Source: an uncultured Puniceicoccaceae bacterium (GTDB lineage Bacteria > Verrucomicrobiota > Verrucomicrobiia > Opitutales > Opitutaceae). From it: DNA of 64,000 nucleotides. How positions within the stretch are numbered: the stretch's first letter is position 1; each line of letters opens with the position of its first letter. The translations under genes and the position numbers were made by a program. The notes beneath the pieces were generated by a model, which was not told where the DNA came from, ran no database searches, and was given only the letters and a program-made list of their open reading frames with translations. Below, piece after piece: positions 1 through 51,360 of this stretch. Where the stretch lies: contig CAWVWU010000001.1 in NCBI GenBank assembly GCA_963933925.1, forward strand, positions 1,231 through 65,230, in the 5' to 3' direction.

Positions 1-259
1 GCTCCACAAGGTCTAGACTATAGGCAGGGCTTTTCGGTTTGAAGATCAAACCATCATATTGCTTGTAGCCTTGGGCTACGGGGTTCCAGCAAATGCCTTT
101 GATGTTGTAGGCTTCGCCGCTGACCGCCAACCGTCCGTTACTTATCTCGACGTTTGAATTTTCCGGTGAGACAGATCTCGTGTCTCCAGTGTTACACGCG
201 GTGAGTAAAACTATAATCGGTAAGAAATAGAGAGGGATGGGAGCGAAAAGGAGTTTCAT
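1..259 (-). CDS. Lipoprotein, probable glycoside hydrolase (GH2/TIM-barrel-like N-terminus); runs off the left edge
   Basis: Manual translation from ATG 259: MKLLFAPIPLYFLPIIVLLTAC (lipobox) ...NGRLAVSGEAYNIKGICWNPV..., open to position 1; not in the ORF track. Confidence 0.5.
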   Translation of the reverse strand, partial: MKLLFAPIPLYFLPIIVLLTACNTGDTRSVSPENSNVEISNGRLAVSGEAYNIKGICWNPVAQGYKQYDGLIFKPKSPAYSLDLVE

Positions 260-626
260 GACTGCATATATAGATTGCATTAAATCGCGCCTAAAACAAG
301 GAAATTGATGAACAGTATAACATTTAGTTTTAAACGGCGAGGATGGTGAGGAGTGATCCGGCTGTTATTAGCTACGCCATCTCCGCTTCGTTTCGTCTCA
401 CTGCGTTCGTTGGGGTGGTCTCCCGCATGCGGGATCGGTACTCGTTGATACGCCGAGACTAGATGGTGAGGGGGAGGGATGGAGCCCGACGTCGCGTGAC
501 CTACGAAGTTACCGAATATACTTATGAGTAGGTGGAGTCTTATTTAATGACATATTATTCTTAAGAGATTCAGCTGAATTGTACTTTCTGTGGACTTGAT
601 AGAGCCGCTTAAGTGAGGCCATTCCT

Positions 627-643
627 GTCTGACCCCTTTTGCG
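627..643 (+). repeat. J motif copy 1 (short)
   Basis: GTCTGACCCCTTTTGCG, about 70 nt from the stop of the 712-870 ORF. Confidence 0.5.
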
Positions 644-711
644 GGCTGTCCCGCAATCGATAGAAGCAGCTAAGGCGTTTTATCCAATTCCTGGGATAAG
701 GATAGAATGGT

Positions 712-870
712 TCACTTAGCGGAACTCCGTTCTTCAGAGTTCTGGCTACTTTCGTTGCTAGGCTCGTTGTCTTCAGTCGACTTTTGGTTGGCTATGGTGT
801 GGATCAATATTCCACCTCCAAAAATGAAGCAGACGATACACCCAATTACAAATAGTGTTAGATCACCCAT
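712..870 (-). CDS. Small single-TM protein (52 aa)
   Basis: Manual translation MGDLTLFVIGCIVCFIFGGGILIHTIANQKSTEDNEPSNESSQNSEERSSAK*; its ATG overlaps the end of the upstream ORF (AATGGGTGA), suggesting translational coupling. Confidence 0.55.
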   Translation of the reverse strand: MGDLTLFVIGCIVCFIFGGGILIHTIANQKSTEDNEPSNESSQNSEERSSAK

Positions 871-1051
871 TTCGCCTCCCAGTTAAAAAGAGCGTTCCTG
901 CTGCGCAGATCGAAGGCACCCAAATGCCCACGTATATGCCCTGTTGCTTGTTGCCGGTAAACCAAAGGTAGTTTGCCAGAATGAATGAGATGAATGCCGC
1001 AGCGAAGAAATACATTTTGGCGTTCTTGTCTGGATCAGATCGTTTTTTCAT
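863..1051 (-). CDS. Small two-TM membrane protein (62 aa)
   Basis: Two hydrophobic segments around WFTGNKQQGIYVGIWVPSI. Confidence 0.65.
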   Translation of the reverse strand: MKKRSDPDKNAKMYFFAAAFISFILANYLWFTGNKQQGIYVGIWVPSICAAGTLFLTGRRNG

Positions 1052-1174
1052 AATTTCAATTATAATCTCTACTTTAATTTAGAACTTTTCAGGAAGAATC
1101 TCACTCGTCGAATTCAGCGAAACGAGTATGGTTAAATTGAGCTCGGAAACAGCAGCAGTTGTTGTTATTGTTGG

Positions 1175-1540
1175 TCACTGCAAAACCAATACCACTACTA
1201 AAGCAGCTAACATTGAAGCCGCGGGCATGCTTTTCTTCAGCGGGTCGCGAATTTTAATATGAGCGACCAGCGCACCTAAAAGTAGAGTAGACATTCCTGC
1301 TGCTGCGAAGGGTGTTACTTCCTGTATGCCTATGCCCACAACGAGCAGAAGGGCAAATAAGAGCTTCGCAGAGCCGACAGTAACGAGAGTCCAACGAGGC
1401 AAGCCATATTCTTCGAACTCCTCCCTCATGTTGGTGGCGTTTCCGCCTCTCCAGGGAGTCGATTTGTTTAATCGGAGTGTCCAAACATTGATTACAGTCA
1501 GTGCAGCGCCGACTTGCAGAAAAATCTCTATTGGTTCCAT
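1175..1540 (-). CDS. DoxX-family membrane protein
   Basis: Four TM segments; MREEFEEYGLP...VGSAKL pattern typical of DoxX-like proteins. Confidence 0.75.
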   Translation of the reverse strand: MEPIEIFLQVGAALTVINVWTLRLNKSTPWRGGNATNMREEFEEYGLPRWTLVTVGSAKLLFALLLVVGIGIQEVTPFAAAGMSTLLLGALVAHIKIRDPLKKSMPAASMLAALVVVLVLQ

Positions 1541-1849
1541 ATTAATCCTATTGCTCCTGAGTTATGAGTTCAAATACTGTTCTTTGAAGCACTAAAGTAA
1601 CTAATAAGCTTCATGAACAAATATTGAATCTACTATGACTATAACAACAAGGCAATTAGGAGCTCAAAACTATCTATAAGTGGTTCATAAGTGATCCATG
1701 ATAGGTGGATTGTGGAGTCTCAAGGCCGATTCTCGATTCGCAGAAGATGACATGTGAGAAAGGGCATACGGCAAAAATCAAATTGATTTCGGTGACCAGA
1801 TCGTATCAGGCCCTACATTATTGAGGACGGTCTTTTTATTCTAAAAGGT

Positions 1850-1944
1850 GGAGATTGTATTTTGGGATGCTTTGATCGAGGGCGACTCTTTTGTCTTTGT
1901 CGGGGTGATTAGGTCTTGTTCGAAAAAAATGGGGGAGTGAGTGG
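1850..1944 (+). repeat. Repeat C copy 1 (degenerate gene-end remnant)
   Basis: GCTTTGATCGAGGGCGACTC(T/A)TTGTCTTTGTCG...GTGATTAGGTCTTGTTCGAAAAAA..GGGGGAGTGAGTGG shared with 8342-8435. Confidence 0.85.
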
Positions 1945-2000
1945 ATCGAACCGAAAATTGACATTTGATCTATTTCTACCCCTTCATTTTGATTTTTGAA

Positions 2001-2014
2001 GTCTGCCCCTTTTG
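2001..2014 (+). repeat. J motif copy 2 (short)
   Basis: GTCTGCCCCTTTTG, 10 nt from the stop at 2024. Confidence 0.45.
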
Positions 2015-2023
2015 GGAGGGGTG

Positions 2024-2506
2024 TTAGCGGGTTTTGGGATTCGTTAGTAGGCGAAAGATTAGGGCGTGTGATACGAGGAGGAAGGGGACGAGTATGGCGG
2101 GGATGAAGAAGGTGGACCCCATCATTTTGACGGCTCCTAGATATGTGCCGATACTGACTGCGACGATGAGGTCGGCGGTTCCCACGATATTGAATACCCA
2201 GATCGCGGGATTGGCCCAGTGTCGCTTAGTGCGTAGAGCGTAGATCGCGATGAATGCCAACACTGCACTTAAGAGATCACCATAGGCGGTGGGATTGGCG
2301 AAGGTCGTTGGTAGGGGACTGGCGGTTACTCCTGGGATGAGGAAGGAAAGTCCTATGTAACGGAATGTATGCGGAAGTATTAGGATGACGAGGGCGCTTT
2401 CTGGGGTGATTTTTCGCAAAGCCGGCAATGCGTACCACTTGGCTATGAAGCCGTAAGCGATAAAACTGAAGAGGAAACAGATCGGTAGGATGAGGTCTAA
2501 TGGCAT
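2024..2506 (-). CDS. Hypothetical multi-pass membrane protein
   Basis: About five TM segments, PHTFRYIGLSFLIPG / AYGDL motifs; ATG at 2506 preferred over the track start at 2545. Confidence 0.7.
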   Translation of the reverse strand: MPLDLILPICFLFSFIAYGFIAKWYALPALRKITPESALVILILPHTFRYIGLSFLIPGVTASPLPTTFANPTAYGDLLSAVLAFIAIYALRTKRHWANPAIWVFNIVGTADLIVAVSIGTYLGAVKMMGSTFFIPAILVPFLLVSHALIFRLLTNPKTR

Positions 2507-2590
2507 GGCAATGAATTTGTTTTTGGTTAAATGATGTATATACAACTAATGGTGAAAAAGTGGATGTTGTTGGTTGTGAAAGGGGACGCA

Positions 2591-3067
2591 TTAATCGGCG
2601 TCCTGAAGCGCGGTGTAGCTGAGGTGGATGCCTTCGGTGCCTTCGGATCCGAGGGTCTTTTGAACCTGAGCTTGGGCTTCTTGCCAGAGAGGAAGGGCTT
2701 TGAGTAGGAGCTTCTTGCCTTTGGGGGTTACGCTGAGCTGCTGGCTGCGTGCGCTTTCGCCGGGGGCAACGTCTATATAGCCGAAGGCCTCAAGGCGGTT
2801 GATGTTGCGGCTGAGGGTGGATTTTTCGAGTCCGAGTTTCTGGGACAGTTCTTTGGGGGAGACAGTTCTGAGGCGGGTGATCGCGACGATTAAGGTGAGT
2901 TGGTTGCCTGTGATATTGAGTTTACTCAAGGCCGTGTCGTAGATGGCCGTAAGCTGACGACCTACACATCGAGCTCTCAGGCCGAGGCATTGCTCGGCGA
3001 TCTGCTTGGCTGCTTTCTCTAGGCTGCGTTCGGTAGATTGTTTCATGCTCATTGGTTGTAGATACAA
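2591..3067 (-). CDS. MarR-family winged-HTH regulator
   Basis: CLGLRAR...YDTAL...ELSQKLGLEKSTLSRNINRLEAFGYI...LTPKG. Confidence 0.85.
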   Translation of the reverse strand: MYLQPMSMKQSTERSLEKAAKQIAEQCLGLRARCVGRQLTAIYDTALSKLNITGNQLTLIVAITRLRTVSPKELSQKLGLEKSTLSRNINRLEAFGYIDVAPGESARSQQLSVTPKGKKLLLKALPLWQEAQAQVQKTLGSEGTEGIHLSYTALQDAD

Positions 3068-3197
3068 CTAACGCGGCGATTGCAAGGTTGATTGCGTGGG
3101 TTTTTTCTTTGTCTTGGCTTTTCAAAACCTTCTAAGAGGCACTTTGGGTAGGGAAGGGCGGGGAATAAGTTGAAGTCGATGACTATCAATATAGAAA

Positions 3198-3220
3198 TAT
3201 CAATAAGCACAGTCTGGCCC
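3198..3220 (+). repeat. J motif copy 3
   Basis: TATCAATAAGCACAGTCTGGCCC, near-match to 7990-8013; 38 nt from the lactonase stop. Confidence 0.6.
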
Positions 3221-3257
3221 GAATGGCGCTCACTTAAGCGACTTTTCGCTTAGGAAG

Positions 3258-4370
3258 CTAGTTCCTGAACAGGATGCAAATCGAGCCCGGAACGCTGATG
3301 ATATTTCGGGTTTGGAAAGTGAGTCCTCCGGTGTCCTGGTCGATTGCAAATACGGCAACTGTATTGGAGTGCTGACCGGCTGCGAGCAGCCATTTTGCAC
3401 TCGGGTCGAGATTGATGTTTCGTGGGAAGGACCCGCGAATGGCTTCCACTTCAAGGACCTTGAGTTGACCCGTTTTGGGGTTGGCTTGGTATACGGTGAC
3501 AGTGTCGTTTCCTCGGTTGGCGGAGTAGACGAATTCGCGATTGGGGTGGACTAAGATTTCTGAAGCCGAATTGAACGCTTCCTTATCCTTAACTTCTTCG
3601 CTTAAAGCCGCGGTAGTCGAACGCATCTGGGCTGTTCCGGTATTAGCGTTGTAGGCGAAAGTGGTGACGGATAGGGTGAGCTCGTTGAGTAGGTATATGA
3701 ATTTTCCGTCTGCTGAGAAACGCATGTGGCGAGGTCCGGAACCCGGAAGCGCTTGGATGTGACCATGAGGCACGATAGAGGGTGTGTGAGTATCCACTTT
3801 ATAAACAATAATCTGGTCTTTGCCAAGATCGGGTACGAACGCGAATTTCCCATCTGGCGAGTAGCCAGTCCAGTGAGGGTGAGGTGAATCTTGGCGTCTC
3901 TTGACGACTTTCGAGCCGCCTTCGTGTTTTATTAGTTGGCCCCGCGGTTCAATCGAGCCATCTGCAGCAATCGGAAAGAGGGCGACGGAACCGCTTCTAT
4001 ATTGGGCGGTAAGGAGGAACTTGCCCGATGGGTGAACGGAAATGTGGGCCGCGCCGCCGTTGCCGATCGCTTCGGTATTCAGAAGGGTGAGTTTGCCAAC
4101 AGAGTCGATTGAATAGGCAGCGACGCAAGGTTCGCCATCGTTGGCGACCGCATAGAGGTGGGACTGTTTAGTATCCATGGCAAGGAATCCAGGAGAACCG
4201 ATTTCAGCAGCTACGGCTGCTGAGCTAAGCTTGCCGCTTTCGGTGTCCAATGTCGCCTGGTAGATGCCCTTTGAATTGCTTCCGCTAGTGCCAAAGTAAA
4301 CATCAACGACTTTGGCCGATACTGGGATTGAAAGTGAAAGGGTGAGTGAAAGTAAGAGTAGATTTCGCAT
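3258..4370 (-). CDS. pgl: Secreted lactonase family beta-propeller (6-phosphogluconolactonase-like)
   Basis: Signal peptide; RQDSPHPH, PDLGKD, GSGPRHMRF, NRGND, GSFPRNINL motifs. Confidence 0.85.
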   Translation of the reverse strand: MRNLLLLSLTLSLSIPVSAKVVDVYFGTSGSNSKGIYQATLDTESGKLSSAAVAAEIGSPGFLAMDTKQSHLYAVANDGEPCVAAYSIDSVGKLTLLNTEAIGNGGAAHISVHPSGKFLLTAQYRSGSVALFPIAADGSIEPRGQLIKHEGGSKVVKRRQDSPHPHWTGYSPDGKFAFVPDLGKDQIIVYKVDTHTPSIVPHGHIQALPGSGPRHMRFSADGKFIYLLNELTLSVTTFAYNANTGTAQMRSTTAALSEEVKDKEAFNSASEILVHPNREFVYSANRGNDTVTVYQANPKTGQLKVLEVEAIRGSFPRNINLDPSAKWLLAAGQHSNTVAVFAIDQDTGGLTFQTRNIISVPGSICILFRN

Positions 4371-4478
4371 GATGTGACTGGATTTTGGTTGGGGTGTGAT
4401 AGGAAAGTCGAAACAAGGACTTCGATCGTATTACAATTGATTGTGGGACGTCTCTTGTCTCCGGGCCCTTTTCGTTTT

Positions 4479-4521
4479 TGTTATAACATTACGAGAGGGC
4501 TCCTTTTGCAAGTGAAGCGAG
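4479..4521 (+). repeat. J motif copy 4
   Basis: TGTTATAACATTACGAGAGGGCTCCTTTTGCAAGTGAAGCGAG, preceded by GGGCCCTTTTCGTTTT as in copies 8 and 9. Confidence 0.8.
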
Positions 4522-4578
4522 TCCCCCGATTCATGATTTAAGGAGCGAGCTTCACTCCCTAGGATTTGAGTTCGGTGA

Positions 4579-4734
4579 TCAGATCATGATGGCTGTGGTC
4601 TCTTTGGTAAGAGGAAAACTCTTCCCTTGGGGAATTACAAAGTAGCCCTTGGTGGCATTTAGGGTGTTGAAACTTTCGGTGAAGCCACGGCCGGGGTGCT
4701 CGCAAGACGTTTTTGTAGAGTTGTCTGGAGTTAT
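4579..4734 (-). pseudogene. C-terminal gene remnant, possibly of a DUF4143-type ATP-binding protein
   Basis: Manual translation ...RGFTESFNTLNATKGYFVIPQGKSFPLTKETTAIMI*; family resemblance recalled from memory only. Confidence 0.3.
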
Positions 4735-4859
4735 CGAAGAGTCATTAAAGTGGCAAATTCGGAATAGATTCCTAAAAAGCGAGATTTAATAATCTGATTA
4801 GGGAGCAAGGAATGGTGTGGGGTAGGTGAGGACTTTGTCTCGTTTGGCTTCCGGTAAAA

Positions 4860-5942
4860 TTAGTCGAGAAGCTTTCTTTCGCGTTGAAGCTCTGCTTTGA
4901 GTTCTTCTTCGCTTGGTAGAATGGTACGGTATTTTGATGCAAAGAGTTGCTCGTTTTCTTTGAGGACAGAGTATTGCACCATGGTTTCGTCTTTATCGGC
5001 ACAAAGAATAATGCCGATCGTGGGGTTGTCGTCTTCACCGCGTTTGAGATCGTCGAACATGCGAACATACATGTCCATTTGTCCAATGTCCTGATGCTTC
5101 AGTTTTTCGGTTTTCAGGTCGAGTATTACGAAGCATTTTAGCAGGTAATTGTAGAAAACGAGATCGATATAGAAGTGGCTTGTCTCGGTGCTGATACGCA
5201 TTTGACGGGCGACAAAGGAAAAGCCACCGCCCAGCTCCAAGAGGAATTTTTGCAGATCGTTGATCAGTGCAGTTTCAAGTTCCTTTTCGTGGGTGCTCGG
5301 GTCCTCGGGGAGATTTAGAAACTCCAGAATGTACGGGTCTTTGAGGTGGGAGAGTTTCGCTGTTTTGCCTTTCGTCGAGGAATCCGAGGATTGAGTGGAG
5401 AGCAAGCGTTGGAATGACTGTGTCTTTATCTGGCGTTCCAGCTCTCTGACGCTCCAGTTGTTTTTCTTCGATTGTTCGAGGTAGTAGGTTCTAGCACTCT
5501 CGTCTTTCTCCCTCATAATGAGGCAGTTGTGACTCCAGCTCAATTCGCTAGACAGTGTGTAGCGAATTCCTTTTTCCGGGCAGCTAAGAAAGAACTGCCG
5601 CATATTTCTAAGATTCGCGAGGGAGAAGCCTTTGCCAAATTCAGTCGTTAGATTTTTAGAGAGTTCTTCGAGGGTTCGTTTGCCATAACCTGCTTTGTCT
5701 GAGCCGCCTTGCTCCTCTTTTACGATGCGTTCACCAACGCACCAATAGGCGCCTACCATCCTGGAGTTGACGGCTTGGACGGCTTGGTTACGTGCGTGAT
5801 CTAGAATCTCTCGGATTTCTGAGAAGAATTCGTTGGCATCGCTGGTTGGTGATTCTCGTTCATGATTGCTGGTGGAAAAGGTTACAGAGCTACCGAGGAA
5901 TACTTGATAGATGTAGTCGATCGCTTTGCGAGCAGTGGTCAA
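4860..5942 (-). CDS. yhcG: YhcG/DUF1016 PD-(D/E)XK nuclease
   Basis: AYWCVGERIV, LSWSH, WSVRELERQI, KDPYILEFL, FYIDLVFY, DIGQMDMYV, PTIGIILC; true start may be downstream of 5942. Confidence 0.9.
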   Translation of the reverse strand: MTTARKAIDYIYQVFLGSSVTFSTSNHERESPTSDANEFFSEIREILDHARNQAVQAVNSRMVGAYWCVGERIVKEEQGGSDKAGYGKRTLEELSKNLTTEFGKGFSLANLRNMRQFFLSCPEKGIRYTLSSELSWSHNCLIMREKDESARTYYLEQSKKNNWSVRELERQIKTQSFQRLLSTQSSDSSTKGKTAKLSHLKDPYILEFLNLPEDPSTHEKELETALINDLQKFLLELGGGFSFVARQMRISTETSHFYIDLVFYNYLLKCFVILDLKTEKLKHQDIGQMDMYVRMFDDLKRGEDDNPTIGIILCADKDETMVQYSVLKENEQLFASKYRTILPSEEELKAELQRERKLLD

Positions 5943-6055
5943 GCATTCCTTGACAACTGAATCTATCGCGGGGGCTTGTGTGAAAATGGACTAATTCTAT
6001 CGTTTGTTTCCCGCTCTCGTAAACGCACAATTCAAGGAGCGAGCTTCCCATTTGC

Positions 6056-6550
6056 TTACCTCCACTTGTAGGTTGTTTTCTCTTCGATTGTGAGGTCTGA
6101 CTTTAAGCTGAGAGATTGCATGAAGGTTGTCAGTTCTGTCTCTGGTATTTTGTTTTTGGGGATAATCAGATTGGCGGCTTGTTTTAGTTTTATAAGAAAC
6201 AGGTTCTCAAGTTCGGTGAGTGATTCTAGGGCTGTGTACTTGATACTTCCGTTGCTTTCGGGTGTTTCAGAGTAGAGGGTATCATCTTCAATGCGAAGTA
6301 TTGCTTCGAGTTCGATCAGACCTTTTTTAGTCTCGGCAATATGCTTTTTGAAGTGTCTTCGGTACTTCCACCTCAGGAGAGGGTTACTGACAACCAACCA
6401 ACCAATCGCTGCACTTGCAAAGCCTATGGCTAATCCCGTTTCGTTGTTGGCGAAGGCGAATGCACTGATACCCGCGTAGATTACGATGCCCCATATTTTC
6501 GATCGTGTTCGTTGAGACCGATGCGTTTTCGTGATGGTCGAAGAGTACAT
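6056..6550 (-). CDS. YcxB-family membrane protein
   Basis: Two TM helices, then ELENLFLIKLKQAANLIIPK; paralogous to 21282-21830. Confidence 0.6.
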   Translation of the reverse strand: MYSSTITKTHRSQRTRSKIWGIVIYAGISAFAFANNETGLAIGFASAAIGWLVVSNPLLRWKYRRHFKKHIAETKKGLIELEAILRIEDDTLYSETPESNGSIKYTALESLTELENLFLIKLKQAANLIIPKNKIPETELTTFMQSLSLKSDLTIEEKTTYKWR

Positions 6551-6600
6551 TTGAAAGTGAATATCTGCACCCTTTGTTGGGCTCTTGTGGTCATGTCGCC

Positions 6601-6790
6601 TTCGGCTCGGTAGCCACCCCGCAGCCCTTCGACAAGCTCAGGCTCTGCGACAAGCTGTCGACTACGTCGATCTCGGATGAACCGAGACGAGGCATCACTG
6701 CAAACAAACGCTTCGCGCTTCGGGGCTTGATGAATCGCAAAATAGTGTATCGAAGCAAGCTTCGAGGAATGAACCCAGTTGCGATTCAAG
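6601..6790. repeat. Cluster of REP-like short palindromic elements
   Basis: CCCTTCGACAAGCTCAGG, TCTCGGATGAACCGAGA hairpin, CGAAGCAAGCTTCG palindrome. Confidence 0.45.
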
Positions 6791-6951
6791 GAGATCGGCT
6801 TCGCTTAAGCTATATTTGATTTCTTGGCTCATGTTTGTAATTGCTGATTAAGGTGTGCTTTTTTTCGAGAGGGTTATTTTCATGGCAAAGCATGAAGGTG
6901 GTTTTTGGGGGCGGATCGTGGAGAAGGGTGTTGGGGTGTTTGGGGCCTAAA

Positions 6952-6992
6952 TGTCAAACATTACGACCTGCCCGCTTTGCGAGTGGAGCGAG
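6952..6992 (+). repeat. J motif copy 5
   Basis: TGTCAAACATTACGACCTGCCCGCTTTGCGAGTGGAGCGAG, preceded by GTTTGGGGCCT; 23 nt from the rsuA stop. Confidence 0.8.
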
Positions 6993-7014
6993 CCCCCCCC
7001 CCCCGGTGTTAGGT

Positions 7015-7713
7015 TTAGGGATTTGGATTTGAGAAGGACTGCACTTCATCGTTTGTTAGAAATCGCCAGTCTCCGAGGGGGACGTCGAGTGATATCTCCC
7101 CGATTTTCTCGCGGTGCAATGAGATGACTCGATTACCGACGGCTGAGAACATGCGTTTGACCTGGTGGTATTTACCTTCGGTGATCGTTAATCTAGCTTC
7201 TTTCGGACCAAGGATTTGTAAGTTTGCTGGTAGAGTTAATTTGGATTCGCCTTGTAGTTGAAATCCACTCTTAAACCGTTCGATCAAGCCTTCCGTTAGA
7301 TCTCGAGATAGACCGACACGATACACTTTCTGACAGTTATTCGCTGGTGTGATAATATCGAATGTCCAACGACCATTGTCGGTGATCAGTACTAAACCCG
7401 TGGTATCGGCATCCAATCGCCCGGCTACATGTAATTCTGAAACCTTCTCGATCTCCAAGGAATTGAAGAGAGACGGATAGGCTCCATCGGCATTCGAGCA
7501 AATCGTGCCCGAGGGTTTGTGCATCAGAAGGTAACGGAAGCTCCGCGTTTTCAGTAATGTGCCATTGAGAGTGATCGTATTATTCTCGTGCACCTGTGCA
7601 GCCTCGTCAGTGATCGTATCACCATTGACCTTCAGTTGGCCATTGTGGATGCATTGAACCGCTTCAGACCTCGTGTATTCGGTACTTTTGCAAACAAATC
7701 TATCTAGGCGCAT
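7015..7713 (-). CDS. rsuA: 16S rRNA pseudouridine(516) synthase
   Basis: N-terminal S4 domain MRLDRF; HKPSG, AGRLDADTTGL catalytic Asp, EGKYHQVKRMF. Confidence 0.9.
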   Translation of the reverse strand: MRLDRFVCKSTEYTRSEAVQCIHNGQLKVNGDTITDEAAQVHENNTITLNGTLLKTRSFRYLLMHKPSGTICSNADGAYPSLFNSLEIEKVSELHVAGRLDADTTGLVLITDNGRWTFDIITPANNCQKVYRVGLSRDLTEGLIERFKSGFQLQGESKLTLPANLQILGPKEARLTITEGKYHQVKRMFSAVGNRVISLHREKIGEISLDVPLGDWRFLTNDEVQSFSNPNP

Positions 7714-7738
7714 GAGAAGGGTTTTTTCCTGTGGGAAT

Positions 7739-7756
7739 TGAAGATTGAAGGGTGAG
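7739..7756 (+). repeat. TGAA-led heptamer repeat
   Basis: TGAAGAT TGAAGGG TGAG upstream of rsuA. Confidence 0.4.
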
Positions 7757-7820
7757 CTCTTCGATGGGCTCAGGATCTACGAGGGTGTGTTTTTTTTAAC
7801 CACGGAAGGGGTGCTGTGAA

Positions 7821-8017
7821 TTTTTTAACCGCCCATCCGCTATGCGGATTCGAGGACGCTGAGAGGGGGAGGTACTCTGATTTTGGGATCGAATCTTCAA
7901 TTTGTAATTTTCATTTACCGCTTGGTGGTGTTTTTCGGGGGCGGTGTATTGATTCGAAACTGACTCTTGAGATTGTTCCGGAGACATTATGTCAATAAAC
8001 ACAGTCTGAGCCCTTTG
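7821..8017 (+). repeat. Direct repeat B copy 1 (ends in J motif copy 6, 7990-8017)
   Basis: Ungapped match to 8529-8725 (offset 708); I count 7 mismatches over the first 178 nt. Confidence 0.95.
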
Positions 8018-8340
8018 TAGCCTACGGCGATAGTGGCGGATGGGTTGTAGTGAGCGGTATGGTAGTTTTTGCTGTCGGCGGCAGTTATTCGAAATTTTCG
8101 AACAACTGAATCTTCGGAGAGTTCATTGTCTTCGAAGATCTTCTTGATGTGATAGTTGATGGTGTGCGTTTTGACGTCGTAGAGCTCTCCCATCATCTTT
8201 TGGCTGAGCCAGATGTCTTCGTTCTCGTAGATCGCTTCGACGCCGCCTTCGCCAGTGGCGGCAATGAAGGTTAGGTACTCGACGGCTGAGGAGCGAACGA
8301 TGGAGGCGGGCTTCTTCTTTTTGTCGGGATCTTTGCTCAT
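7987..8340 (-). pseudogene. rhuM: RhuM-family (virulence RhuM-like) gene, 3'-truncated
   Basis: SSAVEYLTFIAATGEGGVEAIYENEDIWLSQKMMGELYDV...VRKFRITAADSKNY...AVGYK, then leaves homology inside J copy 6. Confidence 0.8.
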
Positions 8341-8341
8341 G

Positions 8342-8435
8342 GGAGGTTGTGTTTGAGGAAGCTTTGATCGAGGGCGACTCTATTGTCTTTGTCGAGGGTG
8401 ATTAGGTCTTGTTCGAAAAAAGGGGGAGTGAGTGG
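8342..8435 (+). repeat. Repeat C copy 2
   Basis: Matches 1850-1944; minus strand reads ...FFEQDLITLDKDNRVALDQSFLKHNLP*, with the stop overlapping the rhuM ATG (ATGA). Confidence 0.85.
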
Positions 8436-8528
8436 GGGAGAGTCGAAAAATGGACCTTCGATGTTTGAGTCCTTTCTTGTCAGGCGGTGACTTTGCTCAG
8501 TACAGGTCAGGATCTGCGAGTTGTGCTA

Positions 8529-8725
8529 TTTTTTAACCGCCCATCCGCTATGCGGATTCGAGGACGCTGAGAGGGGGAGGTACTTTGATTTTGGGATCGA
8601 ATCTTCAATTTGTAATTTTCAATTACCGCTTGGTGGTATTTTACGGGGGCGGTGTATTGATTCGAAACTGACTCTTGAGACTGTTCCGGAGATATCATGT
8701 CAATAAGTACAGCTTGCCCCCTTTG
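8529..8725 (+). repeat. Direct repeat B copy 2 (ends in J motif copy 7, 8698-8738)
   Basis: Ungapped match to 7821-8017; continues CGAGTGCAGGGAG. Confidence 0.95.
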
Positions 8726-8787
8726 CGAGTGCAGGGAGCACTTTAAGCGTTACTTATGTCAATGGATCGTATGTTGGATATTTGGTG

Positions 8788-9762
8788 CTATTTGTCGCAG
8801 CATTTTTTGTATTTCTTTCCGCTACCGCAGGGGCAGGGGTCGTTGCGACCGACTTTGGGGGTGTCTCTAATGAAGGGTTGGTTGGAGGTCTCAGTAGGTG
8901 TGGAAAATGTGGGAAGGGGTTCCTCGTCGAAATTGTCCTCTTCGAGGTCTTTGTCTTCATCGAGATCGGTATCTTTGAATATTTCGTCGTAGAACTCTTT
9001 TTCTTTTTTAGCGGAGGCTTCGGTGAAGCAGTGCCAGGTTGAGAGTTCTTCGTGGGGGTGTTTTAGGAGGCGAAAAGTATTATCGGGAGAGTCTATTGGA
9101 TCCTTCTTTTGGAAGGCTTCTTCTATCTGTTCTTGGGAGTAGAAAGGCATGAAAGGGAAGCCTATTTCGTATTGGTCTTTTATGTGGGGGATGTGCTCTT
9201 CGATGAGAAAGGAGGTGGAGAGCTGTATGGCTGTGTTGCGGAGAACTTCGGGGGCGTCTTTGAGGGTGGATGTGTAGAGAGAATCTAAGTACGAAGTGAG
9301 GATGTCTCGGGAGATTTGTTTGTGGTGATGCAGGATGCCGATGGCACCGAGGGCGGCACTTCGGGAGTATTCGGTGACCCCGTCGTCGTCGACAAGAGCA
9401 TAGAGCTCTAGGGGTGAATCGAAGAAGCAGGCTGCCAGGATTTTGTCGAAGCCTTCACTTATAATGTCGTCGAATTCGTCTTCGGCTTCTTGGCTGTGGG
9501 CTATTTTCGAGAGGACGGTGCGGGCGGAGGTTTCTTTAAAGTGGCCAAGGAGATAGAAGGCGTAGAAGTGAAGCATGTAGTCGTCTTCAAATAATTCGTC
9601 GGGGTCTTCGAGTAGACTGCGTTCGAGGGCTTTGATGAGGTGGGGGATCGCTTCATCTTTACGATCGATGACGGCTTGAATATCATCTGCGGGATAGGGC
9701 CGTTTTAGGGAATAGATTTTTTGAAGGAAATCCGGGAGAGATTCGTAGAATTCTAATGGCAT
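8788..9762 (-). CDS. DUF1186-domain protein with C-terminal SEC-C motif
   Basis: [17 protein letters not shown]-terminal domain, acidic linker, [20 protein letters not shown]. Confidence 0.8.
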
Positions 9763-9988
9763 GGGATGTGGATGGTAAAAGTGAATGAGAAGCGTTTGTA
9801 GGGGATGAAAGCAAATGGAACGAGATCGTCAATGAGGACTGCGGTTTTTCTATGAGGGGAAGAGCCTTTAAATTGAGATCATTTGTGTGAGTAGAGCGAG
9901 TTTGGAAAGGATTTGGGGGCATTGGCCATTACCGAAATGCGCGGGATTGATTTGGAGGTGTAAGATCCGTCGTCTCTCTATCGAGCTT

Positions 9989-10080
9989 CAGTCTTCGCTC
10001 AAAGAGCTACGCCCCGACAGGATGCCGAGACTGGGAGAGATTTGGTTTCAGATTTCGCTCTCTGAGCTACGACCGACAGG
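9989..10080 (+). repeat. Two tandem REP-like units, 60 nt apart
   Basis: CAGTCTTCGCTCAAAGAGCTACGCCCCGACAGG (9989-10021) and CAGATTTCGCTCTCTGAGCTACGACCGACAGG (10049-10080). Confidence 0.7.
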
Positions 10081-10194
10081 GTGCTATTGTTTTAACAGCT
10101 GAGGAGGCTAAGGGTCACGGAGGATCTTGATTCGGTTGCGGTTTTGGGGGAACCACGGATTGAGACGGATGTGGGTTTGAGCCTTTGAGAAAGG

Positions 10195-11199
10195 CTATTT
10201 GGATAGGTTATTTATTTCTGCTTCTAGTTCAGTTAATCCGGCAACGATTTTTTCAAACGATGGACGCCGCCCGAAGATCATATCCTGCATGGCTGAATAA
10301 TCTTTGCCCATTGCGTTGAGAATATTGCTTGGCGGTATTAGTTTAAAGGTGCTCGGTTTTGCGGCATCATAGTTTGCCCAGGTTCTCGGGTAGAATCTCT
10401 TCTTAAAAAGAACCACATCATGCAGAAGGGGTAAGTTGCCTAACGCGTCCGACTTCAGCTGTTTATCTGAAGCCATCAGATGGAGGTCGTAATAGTGTCG
10501 GGAGTATCGCTCGGGAATGACTGAAGATTCGGGGCGGTGCGCTTCGTGATGTAGGATAGTCGCCTTTTCCCAGAAGGTGCGTTCGGCATCGATTGCACGA
10601 ACAGGGCAGATCGGGTCGTCGAATTGATCTGGGAAATCCTCGGCAGCGTAGGGTGTAATCGTATGCTCCGAATGCGGCAGCCAAGATGCCAATGGACCGA
10701 TTTCCAATTGAATGTATGGCAAAAGGCCACTCGTATCCACTGTATGAGGATAGGCAATGCGAACGACATGCCCTTGATCCTTTTCACCGGCTTTCACTTC
10801 CAGTTCGCAATGCGAGCCGAGTGCGTCTCTCAGGAGCGGCAACATTTTTTTGGTGATATGCTCCCGGGCCTTTTCGTTCAGCTCCTCATTGAGCTTTTGC
10901 TGTTTCGTCTTTGACCGTTCACCCATCGGGTCTTGTTCGCCGCTCGCTATTCTCCAATCTAGAACCAAGTCGATGTCTTCGGAAAAGCGGTCGATGAGTC
11001 CGTAGACCTTCGATAGGCTGGTGCCGCCTTTGAAGATTAGTTGTTTTGAAAGCTCTGGGTGCTCGAACAAGTGCTTCAGCGTCCAGCAGACCCAGAAGTC
11101 CTTTTCCACGATGGCACTCGTTCCCATTCCGCGCTGTTACGCCGTCACCATAAACAGTTCATTGCGATCTTTCGCCGAGAGTGCCGCAACGCGATTCAC
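10195..11199 (-). pseudogene. abiEii: AbiEii-family nucleotidyltransferase toxin with in-frame TAA at codon 21
   Basis: GTG start 11199 overlaps the antitoxin TGA; MNRVAALSAKDRNELFMVTA*QRGMGTSAIVEKDFWV...FKGGTSLSK...RFSEDIDL...ERTFWEK...RHYYDL. Confidence 0.85.
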
Positions 11200-11807
11200 G
11201 ATGCGTTCTCCTTGGCTATGGTTCGTATGATATCAGACACCCAAGCGGGAGCCGTTTTTGTGTCTCGAAGGATTTTATCCCACTTGGGCGAGGTGATCGC
11301 GTCCTGAAGCTTCTTTCGAATGCCTGCAGTGATGCGATCTTGTCCCAAAGCCTTTAGCGCCTGAACGACTAGTTCGCTTTCGCCGTGTTTGAATCCGGAT
11401 TCTTTTAAGATCCGTTTTTTGAATGCCAGTTCTCGTTTTCCGATCGCAAAGGTTTTACTGGGCCCATCGGACAAGTAAATTGCTTGAGCTGGAACCTGTG
11501 TTGAAAGTCCCAGAATATTGAGTGCTGTATTTTCAGAAGGCTGTATGCGCCAACCCGATTTGCGTGCCAGGGCCTGGGCTACTTGCTTAATATCTGGTTC
11601 CATCGGACCGTTGATCAGTTTGCTTGTTCGAGGGTAGTCGTATAAGCCGAGCAGTACCCTTCGAATCGTCCCCTTGGCTTCCAAGTTCGTCAGCGCCTTG
11701 CGGGCAGAATCGTCGCTTCCAATATCCAAAAAATCGTTTTTAGAAAATGCCCAACCCCTATGATTGGCATAAATTCTCTTAACTATCTTGTTTTCAATGG
11801 ATTCCAT
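11196..11807 (-). CDS. AbiEi-type antitoxin (DUF6088-like)
   Basis: N-terminal HTH (ARKALTNL...IRRVLLGLYDYP), ALNILGLSTQVP; coupled to AbiEii. Confidence 0.8.
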   Translation of the reverse strand: MESIENKIVKRIYANHRGWAFSKNDFLDIGSDDSARKALTNLEAKGTIRRVLLGLYDYPRTSKLINGPMEPDIKQVAQALARKSGWRIQPSENTALNILGLSTQVPAQAIYLSDGPSKTFAIGKRELAFKKRILKESGFKHGESELVVQALKALGQDRITAGIRKKLQDAITSPKWDKILRDTKTAPAWVSDIIRTIAKENAS

Positions 11808-11902
11808 CGTTTTAATATGGTCTAAAAATTCACAGATTGCACGGCTATTTTGTGAAATTATTTAAGCGATTTTATACGGAGGATGGAGCCTGCGGTAAAT
11901 GA

Positions 11903-11930
11903 TGAATTATGAATGCTGAGGTCTGAGTTT
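11903..11930 (+). repeat. TGAA-led heptamer repeat x4
   Basis: TGAATTA TGAATGC TGAGGTC TGAGTTT. Confidence 0.6.
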
Positions 11931-12020
11931 TGTTTAGGTGTATTTTCAGAGGTGTTTCAATTGAGGGGGGAGGTGTTTTTTGTCTAGAAATTACCTTGGG
12001 AGCGGTGGGTTTGGAGGTTT

Positions 12021-12401
12021 AGAACCGTCCCGCTTAGGGGGAAATGCGAATACATGCGTACCGAGGCTGTAAGCCGACACATGAGGATCCCGCATGCGGG
12101 AGACGAAATATGATGAGGATGTTTTTGTTTAACCGTCCCGCTTAGCGGGATAAACTAAAGGCAGATTAGAAATTTGGTGGTTTTTTAACCGCCCATCCGC
12201 AATGCGGATTCGAAGACGCTACTTCGACTTTGCTCAGTACAGGTAAGGTCGCGAAGATTGAGAAGTGTTTTGGGGATTTCTTAGGTTGTGCTATTTTTTT
12301 TGACCACGAATTAGACGAATTAGACGAATCTTGATGTGGTTGTTATGGTTGTGTGTTTTTAACCGCTAAATTCACTAAAGGACGCTAAGGTCGCAAAGAG
12401 G
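12021..12401 (+). repeat. Array of five AACCRC + 9-10-nt periodic elements, three with nested hairpins
   Basis: Units at about 12021, 12127, 12181, 12290 and 12348, e.g. GACCACGAATTAGACGAATTAGACGAATC. Confidence 0.7.
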
Positions 12402-12606
12402 TATGTTTCTTTCTCTGGTTGTGGGTGTTTGCCCGTGCGTCGCCCTTTGGGATATGCAGGGTTCGAGCTTTGCTCGAAGGGGGTGAAGATGATGTCCATC
12501 GACGCACTTCGTTTGCTGCTTCGACTGAGCTCAGCACAAGTCAGGATTTTCGAGAGGGTGATCTGTTGGGCTTCTTTGCTTTGAAAATGTTCTTGGACGC
12601 TTTGGT

Positions 12607-12731
12607 GGGTGTCGTGTTCTTTGAGTTCTTTGGAGAGGATTAGGCGGTAGCGGGGATCAAGGCGATAGTTTGGGGCCTTTCGTTTTTTGTTATAACATTA
12701 CGAGCTGGCTCCTTTTTGCGAGCGGACCGAG
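12607..12731 (+). repeat. Direct repeat A copy 1 (ends in J motif copy 8, 12688-12731)
   Basis: ...TTTGAGTTC.TTGGAGAGGATTAGGCGGTAGCGGGGATCAAGGCGAT.GTTTGGGGCCTTTCGTTTTT..., matches 14389-14511. Confidence 0.95.
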
Positions 12732-12814
12732 TCCCGACCTTGTTTTACCTCAAGTATTATAGCCAAGGTTTCTCGCGAACGTTCAGGGAGTTCATCTTTT
12801 GAACTGAGTGCGTA

Positions 12815-14200
12815 TTAAGCTACGGAATCCAAAGTAGAAGTGATCGCGTCTAGGTTTTTCTGGGCGGTTTTGCGGAGGTCGGAGAACAGGTGGGCTTCTG
12901 CGATGAAACGGGACCAGAATCGTTGGGCAGCTTGAGCAGCGGGGATCCAGGTTGGGAGTTCTTCGGGGCGTGGAGGGTGGACTTCGATTGGGCGAGTGGG
13001 GAGGTCGCCGGTGCGTTGAGGAGCGTACCGCATCGGTAGCATGTCGTAAATGGGACAGAGCTTGAGGGGGAGTTCTGGAGTTAGGAAGAGGCTGAGGTTC
13101 CCTAGATGTCTGTCGGAGTTGCCAATGAGGCGGCCAAAGTGGTCGAAGGTGGCTATGTGGTCGGCGTCGGTTTGGCTAAGCCAGGATTTCTGGACGAGGG
13201 TTTGAGATGAGAGTGTCCAGGATTGGTCGAGTGGCTCGCCGAGTCCAGCGAGGACGGTGCGTAGCATGAGTGTGGGGATGCGGCCGTGACGTCCTGATCG
13301 GTCGAAGCGTTCGACCTCGAGAAAGGTTCGCTGATTTGTCGGGACAAATTCTGTCAGAGGGCTGGGTAAGCCAATATTGGCAAGTTCTTCGGAAGCGATG
13401 GCTTCGGCTTTTAGGAGGTCGGCCCAACGGCGACCTGCATCGGTTTGGAGTGAGCCGGAGAATTTTACGATTACGTGGCGGAAGCGATCGTCTGAGGTAC
13501 GAATGCAGGCTGTTAATTTGGGTTGTTCTCCGCCGGCGGAAGAGTTGGGGAGGTCGTCTCCTTCAGATATGTTGTGAGCGATGAGTTCGTAGCTTCTTCT
13601 TCGGTCGGCTTCGTCAATGAATGGGGACTGACTTTTAGCTTGGAGGAAAGTGTCTATCGCTTGGCCGCCAAGGATGAAATGTCCTGGGGTATCGTTGCCG
13701 TGTGAGAGGATTGCGGTAAGGGCTTCGTCGATATTCCAGTTTTCAGGATTGGTCCCGATCCTGAGAGTTGGGCCATGGGTGTGAGCGAGCAGGCGGCCGA
13801 GGTAGCCCTGTGGTCGCATGTCGTCTAGAAACCATGGGAGGTCAGGAAATAGATGGGGGTGGTCCTCGCCGTTGAGGAGGTAGGCGTAGTCTTCATTATT
13901 CCCTTTCGGCTCAAGATAGAATTCGCCTTGATGGAGTGCATGGAGTGTCGCAGCTACCTGTGCCTGGCCGGTCTTGTCGATTTGGTAGAGGTTCCAGCTC
14001 GAGTCCTTGTCGTTGAGACGCCGTTGGAGGGCGTAGCGGGCTCGGCGTGTTCGGCCGATTCGGAGGATGTTTTTGGAGGCTCCGAGTGCTCGGGAAACGG
14101 TGGGCTGGCTAACCCCTAGCTGGCGGGCGATGTCCGATGAGGACATTGAGCCTTGGCTGGCGAGGAGGCGTTCGATGGGTATTGTGTGTTTTTGATTCAA
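12815..14200 (-). CDS. yjjJ: HipA-like kinase with N-terminal HTH (YjjJ/HipH type)
   Basis: N-terminal HTH (DIARQLGVSQPTVSRAL), PWFLDDMRPQGYLGR, SSAGGEQPK, VKFS, ERFDR, GNSDRHLGN, PIYDMLPM. Confidence 0.85.
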   Translation of the reverse strand: MNQKHTIPIERLLASQGSMSSSDIARQLGVSQPTVSRALGASKNILRIGRTRRARYALQRRLNDKDSSWNLYQIDKTGQAQVAATLHALHQGEFYLEPKGNNEDYAYLLNGEDHPHLFPDLPWFLDDMRPQGYLGRLLAHTHGPTLRIGTNPENWNIDEALTAILSHGNDTPGHFILGGQAIDTFLQAKSQSPFIDEADRRRSYELIAHNISEGDDLPNSSAGGEQPKLTACIRTSDDRFRHVIVKFSGSLQTDAGRRWADLLKAEAIASEELANIGLPSPLTEFVPTNQRTFLEVERFDRSGRHGRIPTLMLRTVLAGLGEPLDQSWTLSSQTLVQKSWLSQTDADHIATFDHFGRLIGNSDRHLGNLSLFLTPELPLKLCPIYDMLPMRYAPQRTGDLPTRPIEVHPPRPEELPTWIPAAQAAQRFWSRFIAEAHLFSDLRKTAQKNLDAITSTLDSVA

Positions 14201-14388
14201 AATGAATAAAACTATGAATAGTTTAAGTCACTTATAGTCAATGATAATAGAGCTATATATGTATGTTATATGAATAGATTATTGAAGAAATGATATTTCC
14301 TCCCTTTGGAACATAAAAAATGTGCAAACGTACATTTTGAAACAAGACATTCGACGATCCTCTGACTGCCCGTGTAAGGGCTGGTACG

Positions 14389-14511
14389 GGGTGTAGTGCT
14401 CTTTGAGTTCCTTGGAGAGGATTAGGCGGTAGCGGGGATCAAGGCGATCGTTTGGGGCCTTTCGTTTTTGTTAAAACATTACGACCCGACCCCTTTTGCG
14501 AGCGGAGCGAG
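14389..14511 (+). repeat. Direct repeat A copy 2 (ends in J motif copy 9, 14469-14511)
   Basis: Matches 12607-12731. Confidence 0.95.
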
Positions 14512-14597
14512 CCTCTGCGTCGAGAGTTCAGACTCGTGCCAGGATTTGAGGGGCTGTTGCCGGTCGGTTGCCATCTATCAAGATTTAAGAGCTGTCC

Positions 14598-19901: not shown

Positions 19902-19952
19902 TTCGAGGAAACGATAGTGTGAAAAACTAGACGCGATAAGGAGGTTGGTTCT

Positions 19953-20966: not shown

Positions 20967-21251
20967 GTGTGTGCCACTATTAGTTTTTGGGCACTTCCCG
21001 GTGGTGTTGTATTATCTATACCTTTTGTTGTGTTTGGGGCGATGGCCTATCCAACCATTGTGCTATTCTGGCTCGGTATCTTGTGTGGTTTTGTCGGTCT
21101 AGTGGGTATATTGAAATACGGGCGGAAGGGGCTTTTGTGGAAAAGTTTAGCCGGGGTTTTTATACCTGTTTTTGTGTTTATCTGTGCTGTGACCAGTTTC
21201 GCGGATTCGTTGGATGGTTTTATGGACAATTTTAAAGAAGGAATTGATTGA
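20925..21251 (+). CDS. Small membrane protein
   Basis: Three hydrophobic segments; start uncertain because it overlaps the divergent ORF by 42 nt. Confidence 0.5.
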   Translation: MDDVSPSTKSSFYHVCATISFWALPGGVVLSIPFVVFGAMAYPTIVLFWLGILCGFVGLVGILKYGRKGLLWKSLAGVFIPVFVFICAVTSFADSLDGFMDNFKEGID

Positions 21252-21281
21252 GCAATAAGGGCTCTTTTGTTCTTCCGGGGG

Positions 21282-21830: not shown

Positions 21831-22172
21831 GAATGGGAGAAATAGGAAATTCGTTTCGAGTATGGGGCGTGGGGTCGTTGTACCTGTATTTTTATAACCT
21901 TTTGGGGTGGGTTGATTCTAATCCGATGATCAACCATGCACAATTCGCTTTCTTTATAACTCGGGCTGTTGAGCTTGAAAACGTGCCATGCTTTCGGAGT
22001 TCGTCGAATGACGATTGGAATTTGTTAAGGGGAATTGATCTGGGTATTCACTTCAAGGTGGATACCTGTTTTTTTTGTGGCGTTGGCGACGTGGTCGTCG
22101 GCGTTCTCGTGAGAGGGGCAGCCTTCGGCAGGACCTCTAACTAGCAGAGCTAGTTAGAAGTCTTGGCGAAAC

Positions 22173-51289: not shown

Positions 51290-51324
51290 AAAAAAAAGAA
51301 CGGCGCCCTTTTGAGGCGCCGTTC
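51290..51324 (-). terminator. Rho-independent terminator of the TBDR gene
   Basis: GAACGGCGCC-7 nt-GGCGCCGTTC hairpin with a U8 run on the minus strand. Confidence 0.9.
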
Positions 51325-51360
51325 AGGTTTAAAAAACAAACTATACTAAGCGCTCACGAA

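Follow-up and report, generated by a model that had tools for sequence, protein, structure and literature searches.

Co-oriented direct repeats at the module borders of a strain-variable island beside ssrA in an uncultured Puniceicoccaceae bacterium

We analyzed a window of 64,000 nucleotides (64 kb; contig CAWVWU010000001.1 of assembly GCA_963933925.1) from an uncultured Puniceicoccaceae bacterium, the gene spacers of which contain short direct repeats termed J (junction repeats); an initial annotation had proposed nine copies, J1 to J9, from the sequence alone. The window consists of two parts separated by the transfer-messenger RNA (tmRNA) gene ssrA. To the left of ssrA, the minus strand carries 15 of the 17 called genes, and the genes are of accessory or defense type. 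The content of this region, hereafter the island, was derived from Pfam and PADLOC and includes (i) DoxX, MarR, and a lactonase; (ii) a YhcG/DUF1016 nuclease (PADLOC PDC-S02) with YcxB and an RsuA-like pseudouridine synthase; (iii) a RhuM N-terminal protein (RhuM-N) of 117 amino acids (PDC-S05) and a DUF1186 protein with a SEC-C motif; (iv) AbiEi/AbiEii and a YjjJ-type HipA; and (v) a 1767-amino-acid fusion of a DpdF/RecQ-like (DEAD) helicase and a UvrD/GajB-like helicase. To the right of ssrA are core genes, such as those for MscS, malate dehydrogenase, DAHP synthase, and shikimate dehydrogenase. This core is syntenic with Puniceicoccaceae strain K14, in which ssrA is located elsewhere; the identity of MscS is 63% to K14 and 56 to 58% to Pelagicoccus. 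On this basis, the organism is a Puniceicoccaceae-like (Opitutales) marine verrucomicrobium. Public contigs of identical sequence come from ENA and TARA marine metagenomes. The features of the locus on which the analysis is based are as follows.

1 to 21440, no strand: strain-variable accessory/defense region (the island), which contains every J and continues beyond the left edge of the window
22173 to 22529, minus strand: tmRNA gene ssrA (ARAGORN and Rfam, 153.6 bits), with its 3' end facing the island on the left
627 to 643, plus strand: J1, short left-half-like GTCTGACCCCTTTTGCG, weak; preceded at 608 to 626 by an arm of a palindrome resembling repetitive extragenic palindromic (REP) sequences
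2001 to 2014, plus strand: J2, short GTCTGCCCCTTTTG, weak; 68% identity to J1 over 22 nt
3197 to 3220, plus strand: J3, left half of class B without the right half, ATATCAATAAGCACAGTCTGGCCC; differs from the class B 20-mer by 1 mismatch
4463 to 4521, plus strand: J4, full class A copy, GGGCCC..TGTTATAACATTACGA-N7-CCTTTTGCAAGTGAAGCGAG; nhmmer E value of 3.2e-9; blastn matches to J8 and J9
4542 to 4550, plus strand: possible right-half remnant GGAGCGAGC, weak, 8 nt before a minus-strand stop codon
6036 to 6044, plus strand: possible right-half remnant GGAGCGAGC, weak, 11 nt before the YcxB stop codon
6939 to 6993, plus strand: J5, full hybrid copy; nhmmer E value of 4.8e-10; followed by a tract of 12 C
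7820 to 8017, plus strand: copy 1 of a 198-nt repeat, ending in J6 (7989 to 8017, left half only)
8528 to 8739, plus strand: copy 2 of the 198-nt repeat, running into the full J7 (8697 to 8739); nhmmer E value of 1.5e-7
9884 to 9900, plus strand: decayed right half TGTGTGAGTAGAGCGAG in the DUF1186-AbiEii spacer; 3 mismatches to the right-half pattern
12607 to 12731, plus strand: J8 with 81-nt left flank, left member of a 125-nt pair; nhmmer E value of 3.8e-9
14389 to 14511, plus strand: J9 with 81-nt left flank, right member of the 125-nt pair; nhmmer E value of 3e-10

A profile built from the five long copies recovered exactly those five as significant when both strands of the window were searched with nhmmer. 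J4, J5, J7, J8, and J9 were all found on the plus strand, with E values from 3e-10 to 1.5e-7 and profile-match spans of 4485 to 4521, 6957 to 6992, 8703 to 8738, 12694 to 12731, and 14475 to 14511, respectively. J3, J6, and J7 have a left half of 20 nt in common (3 matches at ≤3 mismatches versus 0.01 expected), and J6 also lies within the 198-nt direct repeat (7820 to 8017 and 8528 to 8725, 93% identity). Because of this common left half and the location of J6, J3 and J6 are true homologues, both missing the right half. J1 and J2 had been presented as individually weak, in agreement with their nhmmer E values of 2.2 and 4, respectively; the J1-type 17-mer had 2 matches versus 0.17 expected, and both are plausible copies that are individually nonsignificant. 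All nine sequences are present where they had been proposed, but they are unequal, with five strong copies, two truncated ones, and the nonsignificant J1 and J2.

The right half TTTGCGAGYGGAGCGAG had 9 matches at ≤3 mismatches versus 0.63 expected, and an extra, decayed right half was detected at 9884 to 9900, in the sole large spacer for which no J had previously been noted. A 14-mer, AAGGAGCGAGCTTC, at the 4542 remnant recurs at 6033 to 6046, which could be a chance event within 22 kb. Class A copies (J4, J8, and J9) start at (TTT)GGGGCC, so that the unit is longer than first described; J8 and J9 have another 81 nt of left flank in common (95% identity), and in J5 the left part is a class A/class B hybrid. 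The right edge is sharp and common to all copies (...GAG followed by YCCC), with no alignment beyond it, whereas the left extension is ragged. The copies diverge from each other by 14 to 32%, and their central 7 nt are variable. J is a private family of direct repeats of 45 to 70 nt, with up to 80 to 170 nt of extra shared left flank.

The seven solid copies are all located in the noncoding DNA of the island (5.7 kb), compared with none in that of the core (6.4 kb), a placement with a chance probability of 0.47^7, or approximately 0.005. The earlier remark that no J had been noticed to the right of the tmRNA gene was confirmed, since neither the profile nor the right-half pattern found J in the 42 kb of core, which likewise has many spacers between minus-strand genes, all of them without J. 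A profile scan for clustering had been suggested; within the 64-kb window it returned an island-only distribution on one strand. J1 and J3 belong in part to another, palindromic multicopy repeat. Each spacer between functional units contains one J or J remnant, and no J was found inside the membrane-protein/MarR pair, the AbiEi/AbiEii pair, or the helicase pair. Among the distances to the next stop codon reported earlier, those of 23, 50, 84, and 87 nt hold for J5, J7, J8, and J9, respectively, and J6 does overlap the end of the RhuM-like open reading frame (ORF). For J4, the distance is approximately 38 nt to the CTA at 4559 and not 58 nt, and the gene status of the remnant at J4 is putative. 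The co-orientation of the copies is real but confounded, as all neighboring genes are on the minus strand.

Longer co-oriented repeats, each ending in J, flank two of the modules. The RhuM-N module lies between the two 198-nt repeats, the homology of which ends at ..CCCTTTG within the end of the RhuM-like ORF, and the YjjJ/HipA module lies between 125-nt repeats at 12607 to 12731 and 14389 to 14511 (90% identity). These bracketing repeats have the footprint of single-crossover insertion and are also a substrate for deletion. In the repeat pairs, the flanks are 95 to 96% identical, compared with 73 to 84% for the J parts; for J6 and J7, these values are 96% and 73%, corresponding to 7 mismatches in 169 nt of flank and 7 in 26 nt of J (manual count on the alignment). 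Moreover, the J part is as near or nearer to that of a third copy (J6-J3, 85%; J9-J5, 86%). The lower identity of the J cores relative to their flanks and their closeness to third copies thus point to exchange within J, and the copies are mosaics with breakpoints at or within J. A further duplicate, 1850 to 1944 and 8342 to 8435 (96 nt, 91% identity), comprises the region just upstream of the RhuM-like gene; its homology reaches precisely to the RhuM start codon, whereas the first copy has no RhuM after it. This again shows that exchanges respect module borders. The DNA homology of YjjJ to relatives is restricted to the ORF and 42 nt upstream (12844 to 14242), indicating that the J-bearing spacers are not carried along when the gene moves.

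The 40 nt upstream of YjjJ/HipA (14203 to 14242) contain a near-palindrome, TGAATAAAACTAT..ATAGTTTAAGTCA, which is probably an autoregulatory operator, judging from its form and conservation: this segment is 92.5% identical in the loci of three relatives (L034 to L036), compared with 72% in the coding sequence, and a fourth YjjJ locus, L037, aligns only up to 14220.

For the comparison of strains, we used a metagenome run that contains this strain (X1, with the locus at approximately 2.5x) and three seawater runs of one study (X2 to X4). The latter carry the core from 21,440 rightward at 3 to 6x and approximately 99% identity and hence represent a sister strain, in which the depth is zero over 8,800 to 21,400 and nearly all of 1 to 8,500. 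Within the species, this region is hence flexible in its entirety, and it reaches past the left edge of the window. The 730 nt beside the ssrA 3' end (21440 to 22172), consisting of a spacer and the YcxB-like gene at 21282 to 21830, are approximately 99% identical in the island-less strain, so that the variable region does not begin at ssrA itself. In a second X2 variant, a canonical terminator directly follows ssrA.

One J was nevertheless found in the sister strain. A single-copy X2 contig matches 8600 to 8788 at 100% identity and contains J7 with 98 nt to its left and 50 nt to its right; it stops at the DUF1186 stop codon (8788) and includes neither RhuM nor DUF1186. Its end at 8788 may be a coverage dropout and not a branch. 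At least one J module thus appears, from this contig, to be in a different context in another strain. At low coverage, and hence only as an indication, no J8-J9-like sequence at ≥80% was found in the contigs of X2 to X5, and no other J-like contig was found in X1; likewise, no contig of X2 to X4 covered J4 or J5 at ≥90%. In view of the missing matches to J8/J9, J4, and J5 in the sister runs, J does not appear to be a genome-wide repeat of the species. Several other pieces of the island, 371 to 469, 3214 to 3250, 6616 to 6730, 8529 to 8567, and 12054 to 12087, were present at raised depth in the sister runs and are dispersed repeats of the host genome.

We tentatively interpret the J copies as recombination joints of an island that accreted module by module, a reading that we consider possible although somewhat short of an even chance. 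In this scheme, the modules (lactonase, YhcG nuclease with YcxB, RsuA-like protein, RhuM-N, DUF1186, AbiEi/AbiEii, YjjJ/HipA, and helicase) would have been joined side by side through single-crossover (Campbell-type) insertion at a J-bearing spacer, and every insertion would duplicate the spacer, leaving one copy on each side of the newcomer. The copies would then decay, lose parts by deletion (J3, J6, J1, and J2), and swap parts with one another; the two bracketing pairs would be young, and most J copies would be old, truncated, or recombined. The sharp right edge together with the ragged left one would suggest a defined crossover or end, and a defined crossover would in turn imply that a sequence-specific enzyme, encoded outside the window, acts in trans. 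Ordinary homologous recombination could equally make use of the long repeat pairs; the sharp edge common to the copies inclines us slightly toward the sequence-specific enzyme. Observed directly are the repeats, their confinement to the island, their place at module borders, the two bracketed modules, the mosaic copies, and the strain variability of the region, whereas the building of the array through recombination at J and the enzyme responsible are inferred. The earlier proposal that J marks junctions between acquired modules is compatible with the copy in each spacer, the confinement to the island, the bracketed modules, the mosaic copies, and the occurrence of J7 alone in the sister strain.

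A number of points weigh against accretion at J. (i) The gain or loss of J-to-J units between strains, which the initial annotation had anticipated, was not seen, and what visibly differs between the strains is the island as a whole, which has been lost or replaced. (ii) The contigs contain no circular or deletion joint at J, at a coverage of 2 to 6x that cannot show rare joints. (iii) In accordance with what had been noted before, no tyrosine recombinase, Y1 (HUH) transposase, or remnant thereof was detected in the window by tblastn with two Puniceicoccaceae integrases and with approximate IntI1, XerD, and Y1 queries. (iv) J does not copy the 3' end of ssrA, the kind of repeat that ssrA-targeting integrases would leave. 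(v) The divergence of 14 to 32% and the variable central 7 nt are unlike freshly used att sites. (vi) Co-orientation is expected for anything linked to transcription, because all genes are on one strand.

The last point leads to the main alternative, a rather unlikely one, in which J is a transcription-linked regulatory cassette (a 3' untranslated region or terminator, a protein site, or a boundary resembling the promoter early stem-loops [PeSLs] of phages) and recombination is a by-product. J lies within a narrow distance of the upstream stop codon (23 to 87 nt), compared with 109 to 880 nt to the next start; its orientation tracks the gene strand; and class A copies have, on the plus strand, a G run and a C run around the palindrome TGTTATAACA, followed by a T run. 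PeSLs are likewise co-oriented intergenic repeats of hyperplastic regions and shuffle modules (PMC2839356). However, no sigma-70-type promoter or intrinsic terminator coincides with any J, although canonical terminators are used elsewhere in the organism (51290 to 51330 and the X2 ssrA variant), and promoter or terminator was rejected as an identity for J in the lack of a consensus match. Single-stranded DNA folds of seven J regions were no better than those of shuffled sequences (z scores of -1.8 to +0.9; -1.3 to +0.05 for the strong copies). RNAalifold, applied to both strands, detected no structural conservation, with energies of -3 to -5 kcal/mol and a penalty for covariation. In Rfam 15, only the tmRNA reached the gathering score, and nothing matched J even at an E value of ≤5. 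A structured RNA or single-stranded DNA site was dismissed on the basis of the missing Rfam match and conserved structure. The regulatory alternative is further at odds with the lack of J in all core spacers between minus-strand genes and with J cores that are less conserved than their flanks, the opposite of what is expected of a selected site.

Also unlikely, and slightly more so, is that the J copies are dispersed repeats of passive, mosaic nature that belong to the host or to the island donor, similar to bacterial interspersed mosaic elements (BIMEs) or BOX elements or derived from a decayed miniature inverted-repeat transposable element (MITE), with no role in the array. The spacers are full of other repeats, some of which are multicopy in the sister strain (8529 to 8567, depth of 12 to 35; 3214 to 3250, depth of 15.6), and the element at 6577 to 6790 is also of high copy number, at 22x. 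J1 and J3 are fused to arms of the REP-like palindrome, and the copies are modular, with class A or class B left parts present with or without the right half. J7, and no other copy, has a MITE-like footprint, consisting of two 8-nt direct copies of ATGTCAAT, 57 nt apart within 8689 to 8762, and of 13-nt inverted arms, ATAAGTACAGCTT and AAGCGTTACTTAT. With this sole exception, no general terminal inverted repeat or target site duplication was found among the J copies, and none of them is inverted. In addition, J-like sequence is single copy or absent in the runs of the same species, is missing from the core part of the window, and was found neither in GTDB species genomes nor, beyond the window's own sequence, in JGI metagenomes; the single orientation and the spacing of one copy per boundary would be unexpected for random insertion.

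Still less probable is that the J copies are leftovers of local segmental duplications, through unequal crossing-over or slippage, combined with gene replacement and without a dedicated mechanism. The members of the two young pairs (90 to 96%) are just 0.7 and 1.8 kb apart, and the third duplicate, with its exact end at the RhuM start codon, would fit such events. Against local duplication, the genes between the copies are mutually unrelated, the older copies have only the J core in common, with one sharp right edge, and the J7 module is in a different context in another strain.

We regard as decidedly doubtful the most specific proposal, that J is the site of an undescribed cassette-capture system, read as double-stranded DNA with arms AACATTACGA and CCYTTTGCGAGYGGAGCGAG around the variable 7-nt center, for which a recombinase located elsewhere in the genome would stack defense and accessory modules one way beside ssrA.

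The resemblance to integrons, from which the initial annotation had taken its analogy, is confined to the general layout. According to the IntegronFinder definition of integrons and clusters of attC sites lacking integron-integrases (CALINs) (PMC4889954), J is similar in that its copies are co-oriented, that one repeat is downstream of each ORF, that the cargo is unrelated and includes defense genes, and that no integrase is nearby, as is the case for CALINs. However, J has no R''/R' cores, hairpin, or palindromic organization. No pair of R'' (RYYYAAC) and R' (GTTRRRY) cores 50 to 150 nt apart was found on either strand of 1 to 22172, and the J copies showed no consistent inverted repeats or palindromic organization. 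Furthermore, the J units are not compact cassettes but have spacers of their own with 110 to 880 nt of upstream DNA; several comprise two genes, and one includes the conserved, putative YjjJ operator. An attC site or integron was ruled out on the basis of cores, folding, and cassette anatomy, and the analogy extends no further than a co-oriented array with one repeat per unit.

A second candidate raised at the outset, an HUH enzyme of the REP-associated tyrosine transposase (RAYT) kind, found no support either, as no conserved hairpin of the HUH/Y1 type was found; with no conserved structure at J, the hairpin required by REP/RAYT or IS200/IS605-type HUH enzymes is missing. J is reminiscent of REP/BIME-RAYT and IS200/IS605 systems in that it is extragenic, near gene 3' ends, and mosaic, with two copies abutting a REP-like palindrome, but it is nonpalindromic, hairpin-less, of low copy number, and restricted to the island, and the window encodes no Y1 protein. 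Several other identities were rejected. An ssrA-derived att repeat was ruled out, since ssrA 3' fragments were not found elsewhere in the window and the alignment of J with the tmRNA was no better than that of shuffled J. The idea that the 81-nt flank of J8 and J9 encodes the N terminus of an integrase-like protein found no support. Tn3-type inverted repeats, Tn7 TnsB sites, and dif/pdif, to which the resemblance is limited to a few bases, with neither a second end nor associated genes, were dropped.

The arrays of tycheposons are interspersed with partial repeats of tRNA/tmRNA genes and encode integrases of their own, whereas J is neither a tRNA/tmRNA repeat nor accompanied by an integrase. 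The likeness is that the tycheposons of Prochlorococcus, as presented in 10.1101/2020.12.28.424599, are marine cargo elements that pile up at tRNA/tmRNA genes into flexible islands. PeSLs of T4-type phages consist of a sigma-70 promoter and a stable stem-loop, and recombination between them explains insertions, deletions, and replacements between close relatives (PMC2839356, PMC4122927). As with J, they are short, co-oriented intergenic repeats that bound single genes in a hyperplastic part of the genome; J has neither the sigma-70 promoter nor the stable stem-loop. The tandem ssrA islands of Dehalococcoides include integrase-less modules that have been read as cis-mobilizable elements (CIMEs) arising via accretion (PMC3146451), and ICESt1-type CIMEs are cited there as a related case of accretion. 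The locus shares with these islands the strain-variable region at the ssrA 3' end, the adjacent modules split by co-oriented direct repeats, the many modules without an integrase of their own, and the extra conservation on one side of the repeat. With regard to CIME arrays, the observation is that two modules are bracketed by co-oriented repeats of 125 to 198 nt, in which J would be a candidate att site. The differences are that J is not derived from ssrA, that no integration module is present here, that J has diverged by 14 to 32%, and that the ssrA-adjacent segment 21,440 to 22,172 is also present in the island-less strain.

The classic form of such an ssrA island does occur in a relative, L025, the MscS of which is 71% identical. 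In this locus, which has a 6.8-kb island (2646 to 9789), a tyrosine integrase gene directly follows ssrA, and the 23-nt ssrA end recurs 6.8 kb away beside a second integrase gene, a tandem arrangement without J. This integrase and ssrA repeat indicate that the ssrA flank is an active integration site in the family, which speaks for the accretion reading. Neither the ssrA island of L025 nor the four loci of the closest YjjJ homologues contained J.

Much of the defense repertoire of marine bacteria resides in flexible islands next to tRNA/tmRNA genes, and except for a few model groups, the way in which integrase-less modules accumulate there is poorly understood. If a dedicated enzyme uses J, it would represent a second, non-attC route to ordered gene arrays, and J could serve to locate arrays of this kind in Verrucomicrobiota. 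If J is only a scar or boundary element, the locus would still be a clean, small case of module-wise island growth. RhuM-N and YjjJ are its two candidate recent insertions, amenable to polymerase chain reaction.

Beyond the window, the J pattern, which matches four window copies, had no match in 185,579 GTDB species genomes, and in JGI metagenomes it matched only the TARA contig that is the window's own sequence. In viral contigs, the left-half patterns of classes A and B returned either no match or AT-rich matches attributable to chance, and blastn found no J in the plasmids and phages searched. The exact right-half 19-mer was present in 21 viral contigs representing approximately 7 independent contexts, versus approximately 3.5 expected from a rough estimate of the collection size, and these matches are probably due to chance. 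One of them is an IMG/VR gokushovirus contig (L019, 4540 to 4640), in which the exact right half, TTTTGCGAGCGGAGCGAGC, is intergenic and lies beside hairpins with GGA or GAA loops (GNA loops), GCGGGC-GGA-GCCCGC and CGCGC-GAA-GCGCG. This context suggests that a mini-hairpin containing tandem G.A pairs could form in a right half of the form GCGAGC-GGA-GCGAGC.

The spacers of the island contain further repeats. (i) A 40-nt repeat, TTTTTTAACCGCCCATCCGCTATGCGGATTCGAGGACGCT, is present three times (7821 to 7860, 8529 to 8568, and 12181 to 12220); its depth in the sister runs is 12 to 35, compared with 3 to 6x for the core, and it is therefore a multicopy host repeat. Spacers of the core contain four related TTTAACCRC... 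elements (38883, 38936, 38981, and 51183), each on the plus strand. (ii) The segments 3214 to 3250 and 608 to 626 belong to the REP-like palindrome GCTTAAGTGAGnGCCATTC-CGACCTGGCCC-GAATGGCGCTCACTTAAGC, which is complete in an X2 contig (depth of 15.6); the window has single arms only. J3 is fused to the right arm, at 3221 to 3239, which matches with 0 mismatches, and the arm at 608 to 626 that precedes J1 also matches the palindrome of the X2 contig. (iii) The segment 6577 to 6790 was at 22x in X1, compared with approximately 2.5x for the locus; contigs skip 108 to 179 nt of it, and variants occur in X3 to X5. It is a dispersed element of high copy number, the interior of which varies, and it coincides in part with two mechanical ORFs, 6481 to 6789 (minus strand) and 6574 to 6819 (plus strand).

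The tract of 12 C directly after J5 (6993 to 7004) coincides with breaks in three independent public assemblies: contig L001 ends at 7004, the TARA contig L002 ends at 6992, and in an ENA contig of 28.6 kb the last gene on the side of the tract is, according to the gene table, the RsuA-like gene (7015 to 7713). The breaks would reflect either a homopolymer assembly problem or real heterogeneity. At 14598 to 20966, the helicase fusion is followed by a 337-amino-acid protein without Pfam or PADLOC match, and the two genes may constitute an undescribed two-gene defense system. Finally, the GC skew of the plus strand is positive across the window (0.03 to 0.35) regardless of gene strand, except for the 2-kb bin at 16 to 18 kb (-0.04); most genes thus occupy the C-rich strand, in head-on orientation relative to the inferred leading strand.

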